A stretch of 64,000 nt of DNA from Eledone cirrhosa (Eukaryota). The notes under the pieces were generated by a model, which searched no databases, had not been told where the DNA came from, and saw only the letters and a list, made by a program, of their open reading frames with translations. The stretch lies in NCBI GenBank assembly GCA_964016885.1, contig OZ024748.1, positions 45,322,001 to 45,386,000 of the forward strand, given 5' to 3'. Made by a program: the position numbers and the translations under genes. Within the stretch, counting starts at the first letter, position 1. Every line of letters begins with the position of its first letter. Below, piece after piece: positions 1 through 52,523 of the stretch.

Positions 1-558
1 AACTCTACCAAGGATCTCACACATTATCCAATATATATATACCTGTATACCTGTCAAACGGACATTCATGTCTGTGTCTGTAGTTACATATACACAGATA
101 TACTTACCCTCATATATATATTTACGCACACATTTTCACTATACACACACATTTGTACATACATACATATGTACATCTGTGAGTGTATATACATACATAT
201 ACACACACGTAACTATATTTCTTAAACATTTTTTAATATATTTTATATGTCTATTGTATTACCTTCACCTATATTTACATAATTTTTTTTGCATTTCTTG
301 AGGAGACTTTCCAAATATTTAGCGATGTTTTATATTGCCTCGGTCGACGAACGAATGAAGACGTTTCTTTCGTATTCGCCTTATTCTGGAAACCTCTGGT
401 AATGAGGTAATTATATTGTATTGCTGTTTTTTATACATTAAATTTTGCTCTGGTACTTACATAGAGCACTCTTCACTCCTATGACTTTTTCTGTTTTCAA
501 CGGAAACTTCAATACTTATATATATAGATATATGTATATATATATATACATACATACA

Positions 559-607
<49 letters not shown>

Positions 608-719
608 TTTAAAAACAGCGAGCGAAGTTTGAAATTTAGTTAGATCACCGTATTTTGACTAAAGAAACGCACACACACACTCTCTCTCTCTCTTTATATA
701 TATATATATATATATATAT

Positions 720-770
720 AAGTATGTATGTATACGTACATACATATATGTATACAGACGTACAGTAGCA

Positions 771-869
<99 letters not shown>

Positions 870-1184
870 ACACATATGCATACAGGTACACATACATATA
901 TGCACGCATCAGTTTAGCCGACGTTTATTATAACGCCTGCTTTGTTCGTTTGTTTGTCAACAAATCGAACAGCCTGAATTTATGCCATACGGTGTTAAGG
1001 CAACCACGTCACCATTTTGTTCAACACTGACACAGGAACGATGTACTAGTTTCAAGCTTGTTAGCTATCATCAGCACCGTTTACCCATCTGCCAGATAGT
1101 TGAACGTTCGAAATACATACTTACATTTAAGTAAGTGCCATACTAAGAGTGAGAAATGAAATTTCGTTTTCATTTTTTTCAACT

Positions 1185-1186
<2 letters not shown>
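720..1186 (-). mobile_element. Retrozyme-like element (466-bp family): one HHR-bearing segment on minus (720-1113) joined to an inverted 3' end on plus (1114-1186)
   Basis: Reverse complement matches the 466-bp array monomer. Both ends abut (TA)n. Confidence 0.85.
1037..1081 (-). ncRNA. Type I hammerhead ribozyme (466-bp family)
   Basis: Minus strand reads AACGGUG-CUGAUGA-U AGCU AACA AGCU U-GAAA-CUAGUA/CAUCGUU: 7-bp stem I, intact core, ACUAGU palindromic stem III, GUA cleavage triplet. Confidence 0.85.
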
Positions 1187-1218
<32 letters not shown>

Positions 1219-1311
1219 TGTATGTTTGTATATATATATATATATATACACACACATGTACAGACAGCACACACATACACGCACATATACACATACTTGC
1301 ACATACATGAG

Positions 1312-3395
1312 CTCACCTACACATACAGTCAGATTCACCCATATACATATATGTAGACGTACACATATACACACATACATACACATACATATACACACAC
1401 ACATACGCATACACACATATATACAGATATATATATACACACACATACACACATGTATACACATGTGTTCACATACACACACACACACACATATAACTAT
1501 GCGTACACGCACGCACACTTATACGCCCGTATGTGTAAAAATACTTACACACAGACACACACGCTATTGTTGGTTGGGGAGTGGAGGTATGTGTTGTTGG
1601 TGTTGATGAAGTATGGAGTTGTGTTTTGTGGTGGTGGTGGTGGAGTTGTGATGGACAAACATATATATACAGGATCGAATACTGGTTAAAAGGTGACATG
1701 GGGACCGCGGGGGAGAAGCGTTTATGGACGTACGGCGATGTGTGTTGTGGACATGGTGATGGTGATGGTGCTGGGGTGATATGTTCGACAAGATGATTAC
1801 ATGATCAGAGGTTACGGTGTGTTATAGGGTAAGGCAGACGGGTGGGGGGGTGGGGGTTATATAATACAGTCGATCTGGGAGGGTGGGGTGATATGTGTTG
1901 ATGATGTTAATGATAATGATTGTTGAAGTATATGGATGTATTTAGTGGTGGCGGTGGCTGTGTGTGCGTGCGACAGTACAATTACAGGGTCGAATTTAGC
2001 GTGGGGTTGTAGGTTAGCGTGGACAGAGGGAACATGGGCCGATGAGATTGTAGGTGTGTATGGTAGACATATGACGATGTGTGATGTGGTGGTGGTGGCG
2101 ATGGTGTGATATGATCGACATTGTATTTACAAGGTCCCTTGTCATTGTGGATTGCAAGGTAAAACGTATCATAGGAGATCGATCTAATACGATGTTGCAA
2201 CGATGATGTGTGTATGTTGATGTGAATTTTGGTGGTGGTGATGGTGATGTGTGCGGCATGATATACAAATGCGGGCTTAGAAATGGTTACATGGAGTACA
2301 ATACAATAAGTTCATTGAGATGGGCGATGGTGAGACGGGGTATAGGTGGTTATTAATATGGTTTGTCATGGTTAGTGTGATTTTTGGTGTGGGTTATGTA
2401 TGCGGCATGATATACAAAATACGGGCTTACATTTGGTTAAATGCAATACAATAAAATAAGATAAAGTAAAGTAAAATTAGAATTAAAATTCGTTGAGATG
2501 GGCGATGGTGATACGGGGCAGATGTGCTTATAATTATGGTGGGTCATGGTTAGTGCGTGGCCCTCCCGCGAATGTTTGTGCAGAAAAGGTGTTCATCCTA
2601 GTGTGTCTGCAGATCAAGTCGGCCAGTTTTGTTTGGGGTCGTTTCAGTCTATGTTTGAAGGAGCTTCTGTGATTATCCTACAACCCCACGCTAAATTCGA
2701 CCCTGTAATTGTACTGTCGCACGCACACACAACCACCGCCACCACTAAATACATCCACATACTTCAACAATCATTATCATTAACATCATCAACACATATC
2801 ACCCCTCCCTCCCAGATCGACTGTATTATATATCCCCACCCCCCACCCGTCTGCCTTACCCTATAACACACCGTAACCTCTGATCATGTAATCATCTTGT
2901 CGAATATATCACCCCAGCACCACCACCATCACCATGTCCACAACACACATCGCCGTACGTCCATAAACGCTTCTCCCCCGCGTTCCCCATGTCACCTTTT
3001 AACCAGTATTCGATCCTGTATATATATTTTTGTCCATCACAACTCCACCACCACCACCACCACCACAAAACACAACCCCATACTTCACCAACACCGACAA
3101 CACATACCTCCACTCCCCAACCAACAATAGCGTGTGTCTGTGTGTAAGTATTTTTACACATACGGGCGTATAAGTGTGCGTGCGTGTACGCATAGTTATA
3201 TGTATGTGTGTATGTGTGTATGTGTATATGTGAACACATGTGTATACATGTGTGTATGTGTGTGTATATATATATCTGTATATATATGTGTACGCGTATG
3301 TGTATGTGTGTGTGTATATGTATGTGTATGTATATGTGTATATGTGTACGTCTACATATATGTATATGGGTGAATCTGACTGTATGTGTAGGTGA
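1312..3395. repeat. Long imperfect inverted repeat (~700-bp arms, 1312-2013 / 2677-3395); second copy at ~7212-9295
   Basis: For example GTCGAATTTAGCGTGGGGTTGTAGG (~1989) is the reverse complement of CCTACAACCCCACGCTAAATTCGAC (~2677). Mirror-image ORFs appear on opposite strands. Confidence 0.9.
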
Positions 3396-3954
3396 ATGTG
3401 TGGGCAAGGATGTGCGTATGTCTTTTGTGTTGTGTGTGTTTATACAACAATATGTGTGCACATATATACATATATGTGTGTGCGTATACGTATATACAAA
3501 GTATCTGTCAGACGAAGAGCGTCAGGCTATGTATCTAGGTAAGGACCTTGACGCCACCAATACATCCACCACACCACTACAAACGCCGCTACCATAGACA
3601 ACGGCATCAATACTCCCGCCCTATCACACACCCACACGACAACCCGTCTACTGACAATCCACTAACTTCCTACCACAGCCCATCCCACTAAGCAACCATA
3701 ACCACCACCATATCATCACATCCACCCCCACATATTCTACACGCCAAGGCCAACCCACCACCACCACCACCACCACAGCCCACCTCATCCACCCATCGTC
3801 ACCAACATCTCACCATCACACCCACCCCCATATACACTACAGGCCAGTACATCGCCTTGATCCTTCCCACCAATCAAAACAACTCATTTTGTCAAACTCT
3901 TGAAATCTCTGACTTTACCACATAGCATGTATTTCATTTTCTTATAGCATTTTA

Positions 3955-4200
3955 AGAGAGTCCGTCGAGCTGCGGATTATTGAGTCGGGTAGGATCGATA
4001 TAGATCGAACCTTGAGCTCATCAGTGGCGAAACGCGCATCACCTATCAATAAATGCAATGAAGGAATAATCAATCGCCATTTTTATCCTTTCGATATATT
4101 ACACTCTGTATAGCTCTACACCTCGACACAGAAGTGAACCCAAACATCGAGTGCTCTCCAGGGTGAACCTGCAGTAACTCCTAGTTACCCCCCCCCCGAC
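3955..4200 (+). mobile_element. TA-inserted short element with a degenerate HHR-like motif (CCUUGA..GAAACGCG) and a GAGTGCT 3' motif; relatives at 9855-10101, 29960-30160 (-) and 32127-32378 (-)
   Basis: Reverse-complement homology among the copies. GAAA plus a palindrome lies on the same strand as TCGAGTGCT (4147-4155). Confidence 0.55.
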
Positions 4201-4222
4201 ATATATATATATATATATATAT

Positions 4223-4284
<62 letters not shown>

Positions 4285-4291
<7 letters not shown>

Positions 4292-4544
4292 TGTTTCCTT
4301 GAGCAAGACACTTTATTTCACATTGCTCCAGTTTACTCAGCTGTAGAAATGAGATGATAGGGACTGGGGTCCTTATCATTCCACTGCAAAGTGTTCGTGG
4401 AGGCAAAAACGCACGCAGCACTCACTGTAAATGAGGTTGGTTATAGGATGGGCATCCAGCTGTAGAAATCAAGGCAGCATCAGTTCCCGTCCCACCCTTG
4501 CAAGCAGGGAAAAGTGGACGTAAAATGAAATGATGATGATGATG

Positions 4545-4545
<1 letters not shown>
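4285..4545 (+). mobile_element. SINE body and RTE-type tail, 5'-truncated; duplicate at ~10190-10448
   Basis: CCTTGAGCAAGACACTTTATTTCAC core, shared with the tRNA-headed copy at 53431-53601. Ends GGAAAAGTGGACGTAAAATG(ATG)n. Confidence 0.75.
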
Positions 4546-4612
<67 letters not shown>

Positions 4613-4618
<6 letters not shown>

Positions 4619-4839
4619 AATGTGTGAGATCCTTGGTAGAGTTAGGGATATTTGAAAAAAGGAAAAGAATTACTTCACTTGTAGTTCTAAATAATTTGAC
4701 TTAATTTTATAATATTATAAATCTACCGACTCATAATATTATAAAATTAAATCAAATTATTTAGAACTACAAGTGAAGTAATTCTTTTCCTTTTTTTCAA
4801 ATATCCCTAACTCTACCAAGGATCTCACACATTATCCAA
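4613..4839. repeat. Fold-back (hairpin) element in (TA)n with ~105-bp arms; copy at 10517-10743, partial copy at 1-31
   Basis: TTGGATAATGTGTGAGATCC... / ...GGATCTCACACATTATCCAA with a short central loop. No HHR seen. Confidence 0.9.
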
Positions 4840-5366
4840 TATATATATACCTGTATACCTGTCAAACGGACATTCATGTCTGTGTCTGTAGTTACATATA
4901 CACAGATATACTTACCCTCATATATATATTTACGCACACATTTTCACTATACACACACATTTGTACATACATACATATGTACATCTGTGAGTGTATATAC
5001 ATACATATACACACACGTAACTATATTTCTTAAACATTTTTTAATATATTTTATATGTCTATTGTATTACCTTCACCTATATTTACATAATTTTTTTTGC
5101 ATTTCTTGAGGAGACTTTCCAAATATTTAGCGATGTTTTATATTGCCTCGGTCGACGAACGAATGAAGACGTTTCTTTCGTATTCGCCTTATTCTGGAAA
5201 CCTCTGGTAATGAGGTAATTATATTGTATTGCTGTTTTTTATACATTAAATTTTGCTCTGGTACTTACATAGAGCACTCTTCACTCCTATGACTTTTTCT
5301 GTTTTCAACGGAAACTTCAATACTTATATATATAGATATATGTATATATATATATACATACATACA

Positions 5367-5431
<65 letters not shown>

Positions 5432-5542
5432 TTTAAAAACAGCGAGCGAAGTTTGAAATTTAGTTAGATCACCGTATTTTGACTAAAGAAACGCACACAC
5501 ACACTCTCTCTCTCTCTTTATATATATATATATATATATATA

Positions 5543-7118
<1,576 letters not shown>

Positions 7119-10100
7119 TGTATGTTTGTATATATATATATATATATACACACACATGTACAGACAGCACACACATACACGCACATATACACATACTTGC
7201 ACATACATGAGCTCACCTACACATACAGTCAGATTCACCCATATACATATATGTAGACGTACACATATACACACATACATACACATACATATACACACAC
7301 ACATACGCATACACACATATATACAGATATATATATACACACACATACACACATGTATACACATGTGTTCACATACACACACACACACACATATAACTAT
7401 GCGTACACGCACGCACACTTATACGCCCGTATGTGTAAAAATACTTACACACAGACACACACGCTATTGTTGGTTGGGGAGTGGAGGTATGTGTTGTTGG
7501 TGTTGATGAAGTATGGAGTTGTGTTTTGTGGTGGTGGTGGTGGAGTTGTGATGGACAAACATATATATACAGGATCGAATACTGGTTAAAAGGTGACATG
7601 GGGACCGCGGGGGAGAAGCGTTTATGGACGTACGGCGATGTGTGTTGTGGACATGGTGATGGTGATGGTGCTGGGGTGATATGTTCGACAAGATGATTAC
7701 ATGATCAGAGGTTACGGTGTGTTATAGGGTAAGGCAGACGGGTGGGGGGGTGGGGGTTATATAATACAGTCGATCTGGGAGGGTGGGGTGATATGTGTTG
7801 ATGATGTTAATGATAATGATTGTTGAAGTATATGGATGTATTTAGTGGTGGCGGTGGCTGTGTGTGCGTGCGACAGTACAATTACAGGGTCGAATTTAGC
7901 GTGGGGTTGTAGGTTAGCGTGGACAGAGGGAACATGGGCCGATGAGATTGTAGGTGTGTATGGTAGACATATGACGATGTGTGATGTGGTGGTGGTGGCG
8001 ATGGTGTGATATGATCGACATTGTATTTACAAGGTCCCTTGTCATTGTGGATTGCAAGGTAAAACGTATCATAGGAGATCGATCTAATACGATGTTGCAA
8101 CGATGATGTGTGTATGTTGATGTGAATTTTGGTGGTGGTGATGGTGATGTGTGCGGCATGATATACAAATGCGGGCTTAGAAATGGTTACATGGAGTACA
8201 ATACAATAAGTTCATTGAGATGGGCGATGGTGAGACGGGGTATAGGTGGTTATTAATATGGTTTGTCATGGTTAGTGTGATTTTTGGTGTGGGTTATGTA
8301 TGCGGCATGATATACAAAATACGGGCTTACATTTGGTTAAATGCAATACAATAAAATAAGATAAAGTAAAGTAAAATTAGAATTAAAATTCGTTGAGATG
8401 GGCGATGGTGATACGGGGCAGATGTGCTTATAATTATGGTGGGTCATGGTTAGTGCGTGGCCCTCCCGCGAATGTTTGTGCAGAAAAGGTGTTCATCCTA
8501 GTGTGTCTGCAGATCAAGTCGGCCAGTTTTGTTTGGGGTCGTTTCAGTCTATGTTTGAAGGAGCTTCTGTGATTATCCTACAACCCCACGCTAAATTCGA
8601 CCCTGTAATTGTACTGTCGCACGCACACACAACCACCGCCACCACTAAATACATCCACATACTTCAACAATCATTATCATTAACATCATCAACACATATC
8701 ACCCCTCCCTCCCAGATCGACTGTATTATATATCCCCACCCCCCACCCGTCTGCCTTACCCTATAACACACCGTAACCTCTGATCATGTAATCATCTTGT
8801 CGAATATATCACCCCAGCACCACCACCATCACCATGTCCACAACACACATCGCCGTACGTCCATAAACGCTTCTCCCCCGCGTTCCCCATGTCACCTTTT
8901 AACCAGTATTCGATCCTGTATATATATTTTTGTCCATCACAACTCCACCACCACCACCACCACCACAAAACACAACCCCATACTTCACCAACACCGACAA
9001 CACATACCTCCACTCCCCAACCAACAATAGCGTGTGTCTGTGTGTAAGTATTTTTACACATACGGGCGTATAAGTGTGCGTGCGTGTACGCATAGTTATA
9101 TGTATGTGTGTATGTGTGTATGTGTATATGTGAACACATGTGTATACATGTGTGTATGTGTGTGTATATATATATCTGTATATATATGTGTACGCGTATG
9201 TGTATGTGTGTGTGTATATGTATGTGTATGTATATGTGTATATGTGTACGTCTACATATATGTATATGGGTGAATCTGACTGTATGTGTAGGTGAATGTG
9301 TGGGCAAGGATGTGCGTATGTCTTTTGTGTTGTGTGTGTTTATACAACAATATGTGTGCACATATATACATATATGTGTGTGCGTATACGTATATACAAA
9401 GTATCTGTCAGACGAAGAGCGTCAGGCTATGTATCTAGGTAAGGACCTTGACGCCACCAATACATCCACCACACCACTACAAACGCCGCTACCATAGACA
9501 ACGGCATCAATACTCCCGCCCTATCACACACCCACACGACAACCCGTCTACTGACAATCCACTAACTTCCTACCACAGCCCATCCCACTAAGCAACCATA
9601 ACCACCACCATATCATCACATCCACCCCCACATATTCTACACGCCAAGGCCAACCCACCACCACCACCACCACCACAGCCCACCTCATCCACCCATCGTC
9701 ACCAACATCTCACCATCACACCCACCCCCATATACACTACAGGCCAGTACATCGCCTTGATCCTTCCCACCAATCAAAACAACTCATTTTGTCAAACTCT
9801 TGAAATCTCTGACTTTACCACATAGCATGTATTTCATTTTCTTATAGCATTTTAAGAGAGTCCGTCGAGCTGCGGATTATTGAGTCGGGTAGGATCGATA
9901 TAGATCGAACCTTGAGCTCATCAGTGGCGAAACGCGCATCACCTATCAATAAATGCAATGAAGGAATAATCAATCGCCATTTTTATCCTTTCGATATATT
10001 ACACTCTGTATAGCTCTACACCTCGACACAGAAGTGAACCCAAACATCGAGTGCTCTCCAGGGTGAACCTGCAGTAACTCCTAGTTACCCCCCCCCCCCG

Positions 10101-10124
10101 ACATATATATATATATATATATAT

Positions 10125-10195
<71 letters not shown>

Positions 10196-10448
10196 TGTTT
10201 CCTTGAGCAAGACACTTTATTTCACATTGCTCCAGTTTACTCAGCTGTAGAAATGAGATGATAGGGACTGGGGTCCTTATCATTCCACTGCAAAGTGTTC
10301 GTGGAGGCAAAAACGCACGCAGCACTCACTGTAAATGAGGTTGGTTATAGGATGGGCATCCAGCTGTAGAATTCAAGGCAGCATCAGTTCCCGTCCCACC
10401 CTTGCAAGCAGGGAAAAGTGGACGTAAAATGAAATGATGATGATGATG

Positions 10449-10522
<74 letters not shown>

Positions 10523-11225
10523 AATGTGTGAGATCCTTGGTAGAGTTAGGGATATTTGAAAAAAGGAAAAGAATTACTTCACTTGTAGTTCTAAATAATT
10601 TGACTTAATTTTATAATATTATAAATCTACCGACTCATAATATTATAAAATTAAATCAAATTATTTAGAACTACAAGTGAAGTAATTCTTTTCCTTTTTT
10701 TCAAATATCCCTAACTCTACCAAGGATCTCACACATTATCCAATATATATATACCTGTATACCTGTCAAACGGACATTCATGTCTGTGTCTGTAGTTACA
10801 TATACACAGATATACTTACCCTCATATATATATTTACGCACACATTTTCACTATACACACACATTTGTACATACATACATATGTACATCTGTGAGTGTAT
10901 ATACATACATATACACACACCTAACTATATTTCTTAAACATTTTTTAATATATTTTATATGTCTATTGTATTACCTTCACCTATATTTACATAATTTTTT
11001 TTGCATTTCTTGAGGAGACTTTCCAAATATTTAGCTATGTTTTATATTGCCTCGTCCGACGAACGAATGAAGACGTTTCTTTCGTATTCGCCTTATTCGG
11101 GAAACCTCTGGTAATGAGGTAATTATATTGTATTGCTGTTTTTTATACATTAAATTTTGCTCTGGTACTTACATAGAGCACTCTTCACTCCTATGACTTT
11201 TCTGTTTTCAACGGAAACTTCAATA

Positions 11226-11263
<38 letters not shown>

Positions 11264-11269
11264 CATACA

Positions 11270-11317
<48 letters not shown>

Positions 11318-11319
<2 letters not shown>

Positions 11320-11720
11320 AAAATGATAAGAATGAGCTGCACGTTGCAAATGGGATGCATATGAAAAAGTAAGTCCTTCATCAGTAACCCTCCAACCGTC
11401 CCAGGCATTTCATCGCTTTAAGGGCCATATACCTCAGGTTGGTGCGAACAACGGCTAAAAAAAGTCGTTGGGACACATAAATAAAGGGGACGTTAGGGTA
11501 ACAAACAAAATGGTTTAAGCAACGGAAAGTGAGAAGAAAGAGACAAGTCCCAGATTTCTATGAATATAAACTCGGTGAAATCGTGAACAAGAGACAAAAG
11601 ACCATCAAACCTGGTTGAAATGTGAGCAAGGAAGGAATTTCGCACAGGTCTAACGGGGGGAAGAAGAAGGGGTCTGGTCTACGAATTCGGTAAACATAAG
11701 TTTTGTGAAGTCGCAGACGA
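11318..11720. mobile_element. TA-inserted dispersed repeat; inverted copy at ~60132-60530, diverged relatives at 30340-30680
   Basis: Shared blocks (CCATATACCTC..GGTTGGTGCG; AAACCTGGTTGAAATGTGAGCAAGGAAGG). Confidence 0.75.
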
Positions 11721-12011
11721 TATATATATATATATATATATGAAGCTAGATTTACCATCTTTCTAGTGGGTCCGGGTAAGCTTTTTACATTCATATGATT
11801 TATTGATTTATTGATATTTTTTCTGAGTGACCCGAATCTTCCGCATCGTAATGTTTCGGTCGTATGGTTGATTTTAGACATAATCTATGTGTGTTGGTAT
11901 TTTAACGATTGTTATAGCTCTGATTTATCTGAATTATTGAGCCCTCTGCCACTCATGTCAAATTTTGTTTATCGTGAACTCGTGCGCCGATTTTTCGATA
12001 CTCGATTATTC

Positions 12012-19485: not shown

Positions 19486-19548
19486 TTTTATTATACATAT
19501 TTCAGAGGTACTGAGTTAAGTTCAACAGTACGTCCTCATCAGATAAAA
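19486..19548 (-). ncRNA. Type I hammerhead, TTTTAT superfamily; partner at 20241-20302 (+)
   Basis: UUUUAU-CUGAUGA-GGA C GUACUG...CAGUAC C UCU-GAAA-UAUGUA-UA/AUAAAA. Confidence 0.8.
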
Positions 19549-23141: not shown

Positions 23142-25272
23142 GATAGCAACTAACAGTGCTGCGATCGAATGTGGCTTTTTAGCCCAGCCAATGATCTAAA
23201 ATGTCTTGCACAGAGTCGGCAACCAAAACATTTACTGGGAATAGTCGGCTGTGGTTGGAGTTCGTGTACTTTTGCATGTCGCTTGAGTCCTCCTGCTGAT
23301 TTACATTCTCTACCACATGTTTGGCAAGCATGATGAGTAGCATCTCCAACAGCAGCCTGGTAGTCAACCACTGGTCTTACTTTATGACTGCGAAGATGAC
23401 TTTCGAGTCCAGCTTTGCTTAGGCAGAGTCTCGCACAGACGCTGCATGTCAGAAACATAGGAGGACCCTCGCCGTCTGGAAGTGCAACAGCAATACCCTT
23501 CCTCACGTCCCGCTTTACTTTCTCGTGTGCGATTCGAGATGCCTCAAAGGCAACTTTTCCCTCATATACAGTCTTTCTCCATTTATTACGATCAGCAGCA
23601 ATATTTTCCCATGTATCAGCAGAGATGTTAGCGTCTTTCAGAGAGGCCTTCAAGGAATCCTTATACCTCTTTTTTGGTTTATGTGGCGGTCGTTTTCCTT
23701 TAACCAACTCTCCATAGAAGAGTTGTTTTGGTATTCTAGAATCCTTCATCCTGGCAAGGTGACCACTCCAACGGAGTCGCTGCTTAAGCACAAGAGCTTC
23801 TATACTGTCACACATAGAGCTTTCCAAAATCTCGACATCACTGATGTGGTCCCTCCAGCGAACGCCATGTATCCGTCTGAGACACATCTGATGGAAACGC
23901 TCCAATTGCCTAAGGTGGCGTCGATATGTGACCCAGGTCTCGCAGGCATAAAGAAGACAAGAGAGTACACATGCCCTGTACACCCTTACCTTTGTCCTCC
24001 TGCATATATCTCGCCGACCCCAGAGTCGCCTTTCTAGCTTTCCGAAAGCATCACTTGCTTTCCTAATCCTAAGTGAGATTTCACTGTCAAGGTTGCCGTA
24101 TCGATTGACAGTGCTTCCCAGGTAGACAAACTGATCAACCACTCCAAGTCGTTTGCCATACACATAGATGTTTGGTTCAGTGTACTGCCTACCAGGTGCA
24201 GGTTGGTACATGACGACGGTTTTCTTGAGACTGACAGTCAAACCCAGGGCAGTGCAAGCGTCAGAAAATACATTCAAAATGTGCTGCATATCACTCTCTG
24301 TGTGAGCTACAAGATCGCAATCATCTGCATACAAGAGGTCTCTTATGACTGATGTAAATACCTTTGTCTTCGCAGCAAAGCGCCTGATGTTAAATATGCT
24401 GCCTGAGGTTCGATATCGGATGTAAACACCATGCTCGCAATTCCTGAATGCAACACAGAAAACCATTGCAAAGTATATGGCAAACAGGGTCGGTGCTGGA
24501 ATATCCCCCTGTTTCACTCCATTTTTTACTGAGATAGGCTCCGACATGTTACCTCCGACATTAACCCAAGCCTTCATGTCGTCATGGAAAGACCTAACTA
24601 AAGCAAGGAACTTATCAGGGCAACCAAGTTTCTGGAGAATCTTCCATAATGCATCTCTGTTGACAGTATCGAAAGCCTTTGTCAGATCGACAAAAACCTG
24701 ATACAGATCCAAGCCCTGTTCAATGCACTTCTCCTGGAGCTGTCTAGCTGAGAAGATCATATCAGTAGTGCCGCGTCCAACACGAAAACCAGATTGACTT
24801 TCAGGAAGGACACAATCTGCAATGTGTGTCAGCAGACGGTCCAGAAGCACCCTACATAAAACTTTCCCCACGACAGAAAGCAATGATATACCTCTGTAGT
24901 TCCCACAATCATTCCTGTTACCCTTTCCCTTGTACAAGACCACCATTACTGCATCTCTCCAGTCCTCAGGCACGGATTCATTAGCCCATATCCTTCCAAA
25001 CAGAGAGTGAAGATGTTGCAGGAGTCTCTAACCACCATATTGTAGGAGCTCAGCATGTATGCCATCCATACCTGGAGATCTTCCACTGTTCAGCTTCGAA
25101 ATAGCCACTGCAACCTCCACAAGTGTCGGAGGTTCTGCGAGAGCTACTTTCACAGGACTTTCCGGAATGAGATTGAGGAAATCTTCACTGACGACAGACG
25201 GCTGATTCAAAAGATCATCAAAGTGCTCTCGCCACCTTCGTAGAATTCCCTGTGAGTCACGAAGAAGTTCTT
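22671..25272 (-). mobile_element. 5'-truncated RTE-clade-like non-LTR retrotransposon (LINE)
   Basis: RT ORF. The 3' end carries a CTCG-ATAA-CGAG hairpin followed by GGGCAGCCATC, as expected for RTE-type ends. The 3'UTR is filled with microsatellites. No endonuclease domain. Confidence 0.9.
23150..25272 (-). pseudogene. LINE ORF2 remnant: reverse transcriptase plus three C-terminal C2H2 zinc fingers; in-frame TAG at 25028-25030
   Basis: Motifs NYRGISLL, VDLTKAFDTV, GVKQG, LYADD, YLGS and three CxxC..H..H fingers. The upstream ORF (RRWREHF...SPGMDGIHAELLQYGG*) continues in frame into the 607-aa ORF. Confidence 0.92.
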
Positions 25273-32963: not shown

Positions 32964-33286
32964 AAGTTAGGTGACGTGGTTGCCTTAACACCGTATGGCA
33001 TAAATTCAGGCTGTTCAGTTTGTTTACAAACGAACAAAGCGACGTTAGCGCCGCTAAACTGATACGTGCATATATGTATGTGTACCTGTATGCATATGTA
33101 TGTATATATGTATATATATATATATATGTGCATGCTACTGTACGTCTGTATACATATATGTATGTACGTATACATGCATACTTACATTTAAGTAAGTGCC
33201 ATACTAAGAGTGAGAAATGAAATTTCGTTTTCATTTTGTTTCAATTTATCGTTTTCGGTATGCCTGACCGATTTAACTCACTCAAT

Positions 33287-33294
33287 ATGCAAAT
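33287..33294 (+). promoter_or_regulatory. Octamer motif ATGCAAAT, one per monomer, ~75 bp upstream of the HHR
   Basis: Perfect octamer, retained in the diverged subfamily (~52350-52392). Function is inferred. Confidence 0.5.
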
Positions 33295-33367
33295 TAGGCT
33301 GCTCAGCCGTTAATTTTCATAAGGAAAGTATATACTTTCGACCGTTCAACTATCTGGCAGATGGGTA

Positions 33368-33412
33368 AACGGTGCTGATGATAGCTAACAAGCTTGAAAC
33401 TAGTACATCGTT
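33368..33412 (+). ncRNA. Type I hammerhead; identical copies start at 33834, 34300, 34766, 35232, 35698, 36164 and 36630 (45 nt each)
   Basis: Stem I AACGGUG/CAUCGUU, CUGAUGA at 33375-33381, GAAA at 33396-33399, predicted cleavage after A33405. Confidence 0.88.
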
Positions 33413-36400
33413 CCTGTGTCAGTGTTGAACAAAAAGGTGACGTGGTTGCCTTAACACCGTATGGCATAAATTCAGGCTGTTCAGTTTGTTTACAAACGAA
33501 CAAAGCGACGTTAGCGCCGCTAAACTGATACGTGCATATATGTATGTGTACCTGTATGCATATGTATGTATATATGTATATATATATATATATGTGCATG
33601 CTACTGTACGTCTGTATACATATATGTATGTACGTATACATGCATACTTACATTTAAGTAAGTGCCATACTAAGAGTGAGAAATGAAATTTCGTTTTCAT
33701 TTTGTTTCAATTTATCGTTTTCGGTATGCCTGACCGATTTAACTCACTCAATATGCAAATTAGGCTGCTCAGCCGTTAATTTTCATAAGGAAAGTATATA
33801 CTTTCGACCGTTCAACTATCTGGCAGATGGGTAAACGGTGCTGATGATAGCTAACAAGCTTGAAACTAGTACATCGTTCCTGTGTCAGTGTTGAACAAAA
33901 AGGTGACGTGGTTGCCTTAACACCGTATGGCATAAATTCAGGCTGTTCAGTTTGTTTACAAACGAACAAAGCGACGTTAGCGCCGCTAAACTGATACGTG
34001 CATATATGTATGTGTACCTGTATGCATATGTATGTATATATGTATATATATATATATATGTGCATGCTACTGTACGTCTGTATACATATATGTATGTACG
34101 TATACATGCATACTTACATTTAAGTAAGTGCCATACTAAGAGTGAGAAATGAAATTTCGTTTTCATTTTGTTTCAATTTATCGTTTTCGGTATGCCTGAC
34201 CGATTTAACTCACTCAATATGCAAATTAGGCTGCTCAGCCGTTAATTTTCATAAGGAAAGTATATACTTTCGACCGTTCAACTATCTGGCAGATGGGTAA
34301 ACGGTGCTGATGATAGCTAACAAGCTTGAAACTAGTACATCGTTCCTGTGTCAGTGTTGAACAAAAAGGTGACGTGGTTGCCTTAACACCGTATGGCATA
34401 AATTCAGGCTGTTCAGTTTGTTTACAAACGAACAAAGCGACGTTAGCGCCGCTAAACTGATACGTGCATATATGTATGTGTACCTGTATGCATATGTATG
34501 TATATATGTATATATATATATATATGTGCATGCTACTGTACGTCTGTATACATATATGTATGTACGTATACATGCATACTTACATTTAAGTAAGTGCCAT
34601 ACTAAGAGTGAGAAATGAAATTTCGTTTTCATTTTGTTTCAATTTATCGTTTTCGGTATGCCTGACCGATTTAACTCACTCAATATGCAAATTAGGCTGC
34701 TCAGCCGTTAATTTTCATAAGGAAAGTATATACTTTCGACCGTTCAACTATCTGGCAGATGGGTAAACGGTGCTGATGATAGCTAACAAGCTTGAAACTA
34801 GTACATCGTTCCTGTGTCAGTGTTGAACAAAAAGGTGACGTGGTTGCCTTAACACCGTATGGCATAAATTCAGGCTGTTCAGTTTGTTTACAAACGAACA
34901 AAGCGACGTTAGCGCCGCTAAACTGATACGTGCATATATGTATGTGTACCTGTATGCATATGTATGTATATATGTATATATATATATATATGTGCATGCT
35001 ACTGTACGTCTGTATACATATATGTATGTACGTATACATGCATACTTACATTTAAGTAAGTGCCATACTAAGAGTGAGAAATGAAATTTCGTTTTCATTT
35101 TGTTTCAATTTATCGTTTTCGGTATGCCTGACCGATTTAACTCACTCAATATGCAAATTAGGCTGCTCAGCCGTTAATTTTCATAAGGAAAGTATATACT
35201 TTCGACCGTTCAACTATCTGGCAGATGGGTAAACGGTGCTGATGATAGCTAACAAGCTTGAAACTAGTACATCGTTCCTGTGTCAGTGTTGAACAAAAAG
35301 GTGACGTGGTTGCCTTAACACCGTATGGCATAAATTCAGGCTGTTCAGTTTGTTTACAAACGAACAAAGCGACGTTAGCGCCGCTAAACTGATACGTGCA
35401 TATATGTATGTGTACCTGTATGCATATGTATGTATATATGTATATATATATATATATGTGCATGCTACTGTACGTCTGTATACATATATGTATGTACGTA
35501 TACATGCATACTTACATTTAAGTAAGTGCCATACTAAGAGTGAGAAATGAAATTTCGTTTTCATTTTGTTTCAATTTATCGTTTTCGGTATGCCTGACCG
35601 ATTTAACTCACTCAATATGCAAATTAGGCTGCTCAGCCGTTAATTTTCATAAGGAAAGTATATACTTTCGACCGTTCAACTATCTGGCAGATGGGTAAAC
35701 GGTGCTGATGATAGCTAACAAGCTTGAAACTAGTACATCGTTCCTGTGTCAGTGTTGAACAAAAAGGTGACGTGGTTGCCTTAACACCGTATGGCATAAA
35801 TTCAGGCTGTTCAGTTTGTTTACAAACGAACAAAGCGACGTTAGCGCCGCTAAACTGATACTTGCATATATGTATGTGTACCTGTATGCATATGTATGTA
35901 TATATGTATATATATATATATATGTGCATGCTACTGTACGTCTGTATACATATATGTATGTACGTATACATGCATACTTACATTTAAGTAAGTGCCATAC
36001 TAAGAGTGAGAAATGAAATTTCGTTTTCATTTTGTTTCAATTTATCGTTTTCGGTATGCCTGACCGATTTAACTCACTCAATATGCAAATTAGGCTGCTC
36101 AGCCGTTAATTTTCATAAGGAAAGTATATACTTTCGACCGTTCAACTATCTGGCAGATGGGTAAACGGTGCTGATGATAGCTAACAAGCTTGAAACTAGT
36201 ACATCGTTCCTGTGTCAGTGTTGAACAAAAAGGTGACGTGGTTGCCTTAACACCGTATGGCATAAATTCAGGCTGTTCAGTTTGTTTACAAACGAACAAA
36301 GCGACGTTAGCGCCGCTAAACTGATACGTGCATATATGTATGTGTACCTGTATGCATATGTATGTATATATGTATATATATATATATATGTGCATGCTAC

Positions 36401-37093
36401 TGTACGTCTGTATACATATATGTATGTACGTATACATGCATACTTACATTTAAGTAAGTGCCATACTAAGAGTGAGAAATGAAATTTCGTTTTCATTTTG
36501 TTTCAATTTATCGTTTTCGGTATGCCTGACCGATTTAACTCACTCAATATGCAAATTAGGCTGCTCAGCCGTTAATTTTCATAAGGAAAGTATATACTTT
36601 CGACCGTTCAACTATCTGGCAGATGGGTAAACGGTGCTGATGATAGCTAACAAGCTTGAAACTAGTACATCGTTCCTGTGTCAGTGTTGAACAAAAAGGT
36701 GACGTGGTTGCCTTAACACCGTATGGCATAAATTCAGGCTGTTCAGTTTGTTTACAAACGAACAAAGCGACGTTAGCGCCGCTAAACTGATACGTGCATA
36801 TATGTATGTGTACCTGTATGCATATGTATGTATATATGTATATATATATATATATGTGCATGCTACTGTACGTCTGTATACATATATGTATGTACGTATA
36901 CATGCATACTTACATTTAAGTAAGTGCCATACTAAGAGTGAGAAATGAAATTTCGTTTTCATTTTGTTTCAATCTATATATATATACTTATATATGTATA
37001 ACTATATATATGTCATAGATGCATACACACACATTCATATATATATATATATATATATATCGATATCTATATCCATCTATCTGTGTATATAAA

Positions 37094-37408
<315 letters not shown>

Positions 37409-38077: not shown

Positions 38078-38132
<55 letters not shown>

Positions 38133-38133
<1 letters not shown>

Positions 38134-38415
38134 AACGGAAAAAAATGAAACGATATTTCATTTCCCACTCTTAGTACGGCTGTTACTTAAATATAAGTAT
38201 GTATACGTACATACATATATGTATACAGACGTACAGTAGTATGTATATATATATATATACATACATGCACACATATATATATATGTACGTATGGATTCAC
38301 CGAACATTTATTATAATGCTCGGTGTGTTTGTAAACAAACATCTCGTATTAAGCCGTAGTGTCTAGCAACCACCGTTGCTCGTTTGTTCAACACTGACAA
38401 AGGAACGCTGTACTA
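38133..38415 (-). mobile_element. Diverged subfamily of the 466-bp retrozyme, 5'-truncated at the HHR
   Basis: Near-identical to 51981-52252. Stops at AACGCTGTACTA followed by (TA)n. Confidence 0.8.
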
Positions 38416-51292: not shown

Positions 51293-51616
51293 AATAAAGT
51301 TTCAGCGAGAATCACATTTCGGCGGGTAGGAAAAGCGAAGCGAAACGCAAAAATCAGAAATGATACTGGCAAAGTGCTCAATAGTTAAAAACCAGAGCTA
51401 AACAATGTGTTAAGAAGCCATACAAAACTGAAAAGGTGGTCAAGAAGGCATTAACCACCCAAGCCAAAAACCAAATCAAGCTAAACAGGTCAAAACAAAA
51501 TAAATGATAAAAAATAAATATATATATTTCTAGGAAAATGACCCAATCTACTACCCTAAGTATTGAGTACTCTGGTGCGTTATCTGGTCCATCAGGTTCC
51601 TTACCACACCTCCTAC

Positions 51617-51734
<118 letters not shown>

Positions 51735-51751
51735 TATATATATATATATAT

Positions 51752-51940
51752 AGTGAAGGAAAAGTGGTAAGGAACCAGGTGGACCATAACGCACCAAAGT
51801 ACTCAATACTTAGGGTAGTAGAGTGGGTAATAGAAGTAAGTAAGACCCCGACGGCTGAGCTCAAGCCGTTTCGACGGCTAATGTACAGAATTAGCCGTCG
51901 AAACGGCTTGAGCTCAGCCGTCGGGGTCTTACTTACTCCT
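51752..51940. mobile_element. Fold-back family with GTCGAAACGGC and TTGAGTACT; copies at 51530-51620, 57228-57422, 59470-59602, 60560-60632 and a fragment at 45095-45150
   Basis: Shared GTGGTAAGGAACC..GGACCA..AACGCACCA..AGTACTCAATACTTAGGGTAGTA block. Hairpins have a short right arm. Confidence 0.8.
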
Positions 51941-51980
51941 ATATATATATATACTGTATATATATATATATATATATATG

Positions 51981-52403
51981 TAAACGGAAAAAATGAAACG
52001 AAATTTCATTTCCCACTCTTAGTACGGCTGTTACTTAAATATAAGTATGTATACGTACATACATATATGTATACAGACGTACAGTAGTATGTATATATAT
52101 ATACACATACATGCACACACATATATATATGTACGTATGGATTCACCGAACATTTATTATAATGCTCGGTGTGTTTGTAAACAAACATCCCGTATTAAGC
52201 CGTAGTGTCTAGCAACTATCGTTGCTCGTTTGTTCAAAGGAACGCTGTACTAGTTTCAAGCTTATTAACTATCGTCAGCAACTTATACCTTCCTGCCAGA
52301 TTGTTGAACGTATATACTTACCTTATGCATATTAACGGCTGAGTAGCCCAATTTGCATATCGAGTGGGTTAACCCAGTCGATATGCAAATTGGGTTACTC
52401 AGC
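51981..52403 (-). mobile_element. Diverged 466-family monomer with an HHR (~52241-52285) and a terminal fold-back at 52338-52403
   Basis: GUUG-CUGACGA-U AGUU AAUA AGCU U-GAAA-CUAGUA/CAGC, showing pairing-preserving changes relative to the array copy. Confidence 0.8.
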
Positions 52404-52523
52404 ATATATCGAGGGAGAGACAGAGAGAGAGAGGGGTAAATAGATAGATACTAAAACGGAGTAAGACATACTCTTCTACTGGAGTCTCAGTTACCAATGT
52501 TTGAGAAGTTGTATTATATGGGA

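Follow-up and report, generated by a model that had tools for sequence, protein, structure and literature searches.

A Decaying Solo Retrozyme Copy in a (TA)n Run and Probable Hammerhead Selection Among the Source Elements of Its Family

Anatomy of the Retrozyme Copy

The window, i.e., the whole stretch of 64,000 nucleotides that was analyzed (G000:C8:45322001-45386000), is rich in microsatellites. The segment 51981..52403 is a solo, 5′-inverted, decaying copy of a non-LTR retrozyme, which lies in a (TA)n run and has a predicted type I hammerhead on the minus strand. Retrozyme units of this family are 420-470 bp long, and no coding frame was found in the unit. Along the minus strand, the copy comprises an inverted arm, an octamer, a TATA-like word, the hammerhead, hairpins with an internal (TA/TG) palindrome, and a tail, followed by (TA)n from 51980. 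Its features are as follows:

51981..52372, minus strand: retrozyme body in native orientation, subfamily B (B unit 422 bp), with promoter-like block, hammerhead, hairpins, internal (TA/TG) palindrome and 3′ tail
52338..52403, no strand assigned: 5′ fold-back, in which an inverted, 5′-truncated second arm (52373-52403) mirrors 52338-52368
52351..52358, minus strand: octamer ATGCAAAT, common to subfamilies A and B and to family D
52311..52316, minus strand: TATA-like word, part of the predicted promoter, 41-42 nt past the octamer start in A, B and D
52279..52300, minus strand: stem I 5′ strand (proximal part 52284-52279, loop 1, distal stem), with a private C>A at 52283
52242..52278, minus strand: hammerhead core and helices, with CUGACGA at 52278-52272 (C3 = 52278) and GAAA at 52257-52254
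52270-52259, minus strand: stem II (4 bp, loop AAUA) with U.U at its base and a private C>U wobble at 52268
Within the palindrome ACUAGU, minus strand: stem III of 2 bp; H17 is A at 52248, and the stem I 3′ strand is 52247-52242
Between 52248 and 52247, minus strand: predicted hammerhead cut
52236..52237, minus strand: private 9-nt deletion that takes most of the distal stem I 3′ strand
51981..52041, minus strand: 3′ tail of 61 nt between two preferred ends, with a hairpin at 52014-51986
52042 and 51981, minus strand: preferred 3′ end site 1 (after CATACTTA at 52042) and site 2 (after CCGTTTA at 51981)
51940..51980, no strand assigned: (TA)n target run at the 3′ junction of the copy, in which a target-site duplication is not discernible

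The ribozyme reads GUUG-CUGACGA-U-AGUU-AAUA-AGCU-U-GAAA-CUAG-UA-CAGC on the minus strand. In the hammerhead position numbering, N7 and H17 are positions tolerant of change. The type I core (CUGANGA, GAAA and UH) and three helices, open at helix I, are all found here, with helix I down to four contiguous pairs. Rfam returned no hammerhead hit, either above the gathering score anywhere in the window or at E≤5 in 51700-52500; this reflects the cut-off of the library and not a structural criterion. The hammerhead assignment rests on core motif, helices, and covariation. Rfam miRNA matches in the region were rejected as artefacts of the fold-back and of (TA/TG). The palindrome ACUAGU may form a 6-bp duplex with a second ACUAGU (-4.8 kcal/mol, computed), and such a dimer mode has been reported for animal type I hammerheads (PMC4209133, PMC7229834). 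At least two consecutive intact hammerheads, by which Li et al. (2026) recognize an active element, occur in the arrays of the family and not in this copy, because it is solo and its one hammerhead is damaged.

Family Size and Subfamilies

Further members of the family lie in the same window:

32969-36977, plus strand: subfamily A tandem array of 8.6 units × 466 bp, 99% identical, with 8 hammerheads, flanked by (TA)n runs
38132..38415, minus strand: second subfamily B copy, 5′-truncated, 94% identical to the copy at 51981..52403, starting 3-5 nt upstream of the predicted cut
5626..7086, minus strand: more subfamily A units (hammerheads at 6974, 6409 and 5902) and a short inverted arm
798-1186: duplicate of the first unit of 5626..7086

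The second B copy is followed by a short (TA)n and then by a fold-back insert of another hammerhead family (to 38820). Within 1-12000, a segment of ~5.9 kb is apparently tandem-duplicated; it includes a retrozyme unit as well as a 209-aa frame that recurs identically at 2892 and 8792.

In the 3.0-Gb genome, a pattern in the promoter block has 20,139 exact matches, one immediately 3′ of the cut has 29,620, and one for subfamily B has 4,231. Loci were sampled as the first places on contig 1, with anchors outside the ribozyme, and the loci fetched from a list of 100 of the 20,139 promoter-block places held 85 copies from 66 independent insertions. These insertions belong to lineage A (the array type), an intermediate lineage, B (the type of the copy at 51981..52403), and an older lineage C.

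As in non-LTR retrozymes, every unit of a short, non-coding tandem repeat contains a type I hammerhead, both in the array 32969-36977 and in B arrays with a 422-bp unit. The elements are dispersed in high copy number, end in (TA)n without terminal direct repeats, and have no LTR, PBS or PPT (the last two judged by eye). The family is thus a new member of the known metazoan non-LTR retrozymes. Neither a description of the retrozyme family of this genome nor an inherited-versus-private mutation test for retrozymes was found in the openly available main texts searched; supplements might include the former. Related pieces also occur in runs X4, X6, X7, X10 and X12 (other organisms), in a small number of low-depth contigs, and carry no weight in the present argument. 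In one B array (G000:C1:49584270-49588133), a stem II variant alternates every unit, and this period of two suggests a dimer template or a higher-order duplication.

Private Changes and Neutral Decay

The initial annotation compared the copy with the array, which reads CGGUG-CUGAUGA-U-AGCU-AACA-AGCU-U-GAAA-CUAG-UA-CAUCG, and described it as a diverged subfamily whose substitutions preserve the ribozyme fold. The letters quoted for both are present, ACUAGU and the octamer (52358-52351) occur in both, and the flanks are diverged as stated, with 74% identity between the copy and the 466-bp array unit over 383 nt. Subfamilies A and B do exist; a single copy had, however, been taken for a subfamily and compared with a single array. 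The ribozyme difference that truly separates A from B consists of N7, loop 2 position 3, and one stem I pair (G.U to U.G).

Set against 14 B copies, the copy has three private changes in the ribozyme region, namely C>A at 52283, C>U at 52268, and the 9-nt deletion in distal stem I. The first converts stem I pair 5 from C-G to A.G and is carried by none of 100 B copies. GUUG/CAGC can be read in stem I as described, but this description shortens the stem from 5 to 4 pairs and mentions neither the broken pair 5 nor the deletion. When the hammerhead fold is enforced, the copy gives the worst value (-7.1 kcal/mol, where eight other rows reach -17.6 to -21.6), and left unconstrained it does not fold into a hammerhead. 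Shuffle z-scores for the 82-nt ribozyme region are +0.7 for this copy and -0.9 to -2.2 for three others, a weak signal.

The second change yields the AGUU of stem II, which had been treated as a subfamily character and is found in 0/14 and 3/100 subfamily-B copies, both sets having been picked without regard to the ribozyme. Since ranking by query likeness enriches AGUU, BLAST-ranked loci are unfit for such frequencies and were left out of the counts. Genome-wide, in the same 33-nt context, the wobble occurs in 114 copies, the pair-breaking partner-side G>A in 113, and neither in 7,624; among the matches listed, a single array on C21 contributed 17 of 100 wobble rows. In an independent run (X1), the consensus base was present at 52268 in 99.4% and at 52283 in 99.3% of contigs, percentages weighted by contig depth, which is not copy number. 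The wobble in stem II is a chance mutation like any other, and the private changes of the copy are neutral decay.

The same applies to inserted copies in general. Rare changes, defined as those in ≤3 insertions, were counted in a set of 100 B copies representing 61 insertions. The 11 core sites had 10 of them, the 20 stem I/II sites 24, and the 70 flank sites 61, which corresponds to 0.0149, 0.0197 and 0.0143 per site per insertion, respectively (core versus flank, p=0.86). The core is intact in 90/100 B copies. In a separate set of 47 copies with single-base deletions, the deletions are spread over the whole ribozyme, core included. The X1 table, which lacks two rows and missed one known variable site, has no core position at 1% and is consistent with these counts. 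Inserted copies therefore mutate neutrally, with the core at the flank rate. A core mutating at the background rate across many copies had been named as evidence against selection; at the level of copies this is what was found, as is expected for any retroelement after insertion.

Constraint Between Lineages

A different picture emerges from inherited variants. Those shared by at least three of the 66 loci affect 0/11 core sites versus 49/132 flank sites (p=0.016), and 1/23 sites of core, stem II and stem III together versus the same 49/132 (p=0.001), with flank counts inflated by a chimeric copy that was kept; one truncated copy in this set was swapped for its neighbour. Rare changes in the 66-locus set were also fewer at constrained sites (0.47×, p=0.013), and a 2×2 test of shared versus rare changes was not significant (p=0.30). 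At stem I pair 3, the 66 loci have U.G (29), G.U (22), A-U (12), or no pair (3); at pair 4, four changes break the pair and four produce a wobble. Lineage-level changes inside the ribozyme are confined to N7 (C/U), loop 2 position 3, H17 (A or U and in no case G), 10.1/11.1, and the two partners of stem I pair 3 (rows L097 and L039 were left out of alignment A2 for H17 and N7). These are positions at which change is tolerated in hammerhead biochemistry. Between A and B, 2/22 stem letters are changed with pairing kept, which alone is no more than expected by chance (p 0.17-0.33).

Sister family D extends the comparison. It has a unit of ~466-470 bp, ends in (TA)n, and forms arrays of >30 units with an inverted arm; it carries G-C at 10.1/11.1 and a predicted GUU cut triplet, and it is homologous to the retrozyme in the promoter and 3′ region (E 1e-7). 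The search that found it specified the core and spacing only, with a non-U base at 10.1, and gave 11,210 matches, mostly D; the core identity of D is thus conditioned by the search, which did not require stem pairing. Loci of this family include G000:C1:53176, 5738327-5752443 and others (L172-L200). The stems of D differ from those of B in 13/22 letters and from those of A in 12/22, and 11/11 pairs are kept (p of 1e-3 for B and 3e-3 for A with the same sites changed, and of 3e-5 and 7e-5 with random sites). Within family D, stem II swaps U-A for A-U. In 11 chosen rows, both sides have changed in 8/17 pairs, and 93% of cells pair versus 31-52% when slid, a control that ignores relatedness; because the rows are related, this covariation amounts to a handful of events, and independent lineages are few (about four). 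No core-dead lineage was found among the 66 and 61 sampled insertions.

With the core spared by inherited variants, variation limited to tolerated positions, and the pairs of D kept, the source elements are likely under selection for the ribozyme, as judged from sequence comparison, and this selection is seen only between lineages. Unpaired catalytic bases are kept and change only at N7 and H17, which points to catalysis and not to shape alone. The proposal of selection on RNA structure thus appears sound for lineages of source elements, from evidence other than that originally offered, and fails for the copy at 51981..52403, whose private changes are neutral.

Insertion and the Penelope Connection

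Of the 35 sampled loci, 25 terminate at either of two positions that are separated by 61 nt and immediately precede (TA)n, and 15 have element sequence in both orientations. In 100 copies anchored just past the cut, the 5′ end fell within one unit in 66, and within 7 nt of the cut in 2/66, with ~2 expected; paired arms were counted twice, and 5′ ends near 300-360 nt lie in an internal microsatellite and are unreliable. Since 5′ ends are not concentrated around the cut, cut linear monomers were not the main template, and circles and uncut multimers both remain as candidates. A rolling-circle test by array-private variants gave 1/30, a value confounded by truncated units.

It was reported by Craig et al. 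that Penelope-like elements have (TA)n targets, inverted 5′ arms and tails, and that non-autonomous ones are arranged head-to-tail (PMC8557442). According to Frangieh et al., the Penelope tail lies between two internal reverse transcription start sites (PMC11167929). The marks of Penelope mobilization, i.e., a microsatellite target, 5′ truncation or inversion, and a tail between two 3′ ends, are present in the family studied here. Penelope-like ORF fragments were found in the fetched loci as separate inserts (GIY-YIG E 2.6e-4, below the cut-off), and no autonomous partner sharing the retrozyme unit was found among the ORFs of 160 fetched loci.

Proposed Mechanism and Alternative Explanations

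The best explanation, to which we assign a probability of about 0.8, treats 51981..52403 as a solo copy, now decaying, of a high-copy retrozyme. On this view, selection likely maintains a working type I hammerhead in the source elements, and inserted copies are neutral. Briefly, a tandem unit would be transcribed from its own snRNA-like promoter, and adjacent hammerheads would pair via ACUAGU and excise unit-length RNA, as the fold and tested relatives suggest. The unit RNA may then be circularised by a host ligase (cf. PMC7229834). A Penelope-type reverse transcriptase/endonuclease would nick (TA)n, the target observed here, and would start at one of the two internal sites 61 nt apart and copy through the cut site. 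The products would be solo, tandem, and 5′-inverted inserts, whose ends, target, and inversions are those observed. New lineages would arise solely from units that retain cutting, from which it follows that inherited changes spare the core and keep pairs and that private changes do not, both as found. Propagation would thus probably depend on cleavage at the level of lineages.

A stronger form of this explanation, in which self-cleavage is an obligatory filter in animal retrozyme copying and the (TA)n-targeting Penelope enzyme copies circles, is advanced only tentatively. With the promoter located 5′ of the ribozyme, it would then be passed on by cut and circularised units alone. If so, the neutral private and constrained inherited changes would constitute a genome-scale natural in vivo mutational scan of the hammerhead.

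The most serious rival differs from the best explanation solely in whether cutting is obligatory. It holds that cutting and circularising make the RNA abundant or stable, or that the enzyme binds the fold, and that insertion proceeds from an uncut multimer, cleavage being helpful and not required and the ribozyme a passenger. It agrees with experiments on the Anolis Penelope element (PAc), in which in vitro insertion is unimpaired in hammerhead-dead mutants and draws mainly on uncut RNA (PMC11167929), and with the suggestion that hammerheads may simply parasitise Penelope elements (PMC8557442). Nearly all sampled copies cross the cut site, which fits uncut RNA as well as circles. Against it stand the strictly kept unpaired catalytic bases, which point to catalysis and not to shape alone, and the absence of a core-dead lineage among the sampled insertions; we consider this rival less likely than the best explanation.

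A reading of the unit as a pseudo-LTR, remaining as truncated pieces of an autonomous Penelope-like element, is improbable. Xenopus retrozymes and pseudo-LTRs have been reported to be related (10.64898/2026.07.22.740005), and the Penelope-like ORF fragments mentioned above share the (TA)n runs. Yet by eye no ORF in the 160 loci was seen to run on from the unit except across a (TA)n run, and what lies upstream is the unit itself.

Less probable still is a DNA-level satellite, spread by unequal crossing-over and segmental duplication, with ribozyme conservation only apparent because copies are young. Long arrays and local duplications do amplify wobble, pair-breaking and core-dead units as well (C21:33.96 Mb array; C1:97.0 Mb), but solo copies are dispersed, they have two exact 3′ ends in (TA)n, are truncated on the 5′ side to varying extents and include inversions, and the flanks are strongly diverged while pairs are kept; DNA-level expansion is hence a secondary process. 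The reading first proposed, in which the copy is itself a subfamily, each stem I and stem II change (wobble included) was selected for pairing, and selection on copies is ongoing, can draw on stem I pair 3 (G.U in A, U.G in B, A-U in intermediate lineages) and on N7, which do differ, and is hardly tenable given that wobble and pair-breaking changes are equally frequent, which refutes it for stem II, that X1 has consensus C at 52268, that pair 5 is broken beside a deletion, and that the core of copies mutates at the flank rate.

The element class was already known, and 51981..52403 is a poor example of it; the method and the result are what is useful. The ~30,000 copies allow inherited changes to be split from private ones, and the hammerhead appears constrained only in source elements. 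This bears on whether cutting is needed for retrozyme and Penelope mobility, a question to which one in vitro test, of an autonomous element, has answered no. The family also offers natural variants for cleavage assays, including four pair types at one stem I position and two rewritten stem II helices.

Comparison with Known Systems

The family resembles the metazoan non-LTR retrozymes described in PMC7229834, especially axolotl Rtz_353/HHR_Amex2, in having a non-coding tandem unit of a few hundred bp and low GC, a canonical type I hammerhead with a 6-bp helix I and a short palindromic helix III, and several families per genome with thousands of copies. It further shares with axolotl HHR_Amex2, which cuts better as a dimer, a U.U at the base of helix II and a 2-bp helix III (PMC7229834). 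Unlike those retrozymes (150-450 bp), the unit here is 422-470 bp and is known from sequence alone; a target-site duplication is not seen here because the target is (TA)n.

Insertions of Penelope-like elements from the Naiad and Neptune clades share with the family the (TA)n target, truncation and an inverted arm at the 5′ end, the head-to-tail arrangement of units, and two 3′ ends bounding an optional tail (PMC8557442, PMC11167929). The retrozyme, by contrast, has no ORF and a tail of 61 nt versus 30-40, and its hammerhead is canonical as opposed to the minimal type of Penelope-like elements (PMC4209133). Newt satellite 2 is likewise a hammerhead tandem repeat and is cited as having an internal snRNA-type promoter (PMC2220036), to which the likeness here is one of motifs. 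In the vertebrate survey of Li, Clavereau and Pollet (2026, 10.64898/2026.07.22.740005), monomers, dimers and multimers are tied to Penelope elements as here, and one of nine predicted Xenopus retrozymes cut in vitro; its retrozymes are related to pseudo-LTRs, and inherited and private changes are not separated in the available part of that work.

A Predicted snRNA-Like Promoter

On motif likeness, the retrozyme is predicted to have an snRNA-like internal promoter. In host U6 genes, an octamer-like word lies at -76 to -78 in 4/5 distinct upstream regions, with a TATA-like word near -30; the spacing from octamer to TATA is 45-48 nt there versus 41-42 nt in A, B and D (41 in D). Host U1/U2 genes (L143-L170, L101-L112) have a TATA-like word near -30 as in U6, and the snRNA classes differ by TCAG at -56 (U1/U2) versus the octamer at -77 (U6). 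In U1/U2 regions, TCAG lies 26 nt before TATA, and TCAG-N21-23-TATAYA was matched in 9/18 under the strict pattern. Subfamilies A and B carry octamer, TCAG and TATA, and D has octamer and TATA without TCAG. The host snRNA promoter pattern departs from the vertebrate rule. For newt satellite 2, the snRNA-type promoter is credited to Coats, Zhang and Epstein (1994) in PMC2220036.

Other Elements in the Window

A LINE-type reverse transcriptase frame of 625 aa lies at 23150-25027 on the minus strand (RVT_1 E 8e-31), with C-terminal C2H2 zinc fingers. Hammerhead-like motifs of the form CUGAUGA...GAAAUAUAUA with a long stem II occur at 19542, 20247, 25977, 31774/31906, 32803, 38526/38659, 47358/47493 and 56418/56560, often as inverted pairs in (TA)n runs, and look like minimal Penelope pseudo-LTR hammerheads of several families. 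Further CUGA...GAAA motif families are located at 37346/37352, 42385, 56071/56077, 12763 and 20912, two of which centre perfect fold-backs. Another (TA)n-inserted repeat with a long fold-back (51745-51940 and 51500-51620) adjoins the 3′ end of the copy at 51981..52403 and has GUC directly before GAAA.
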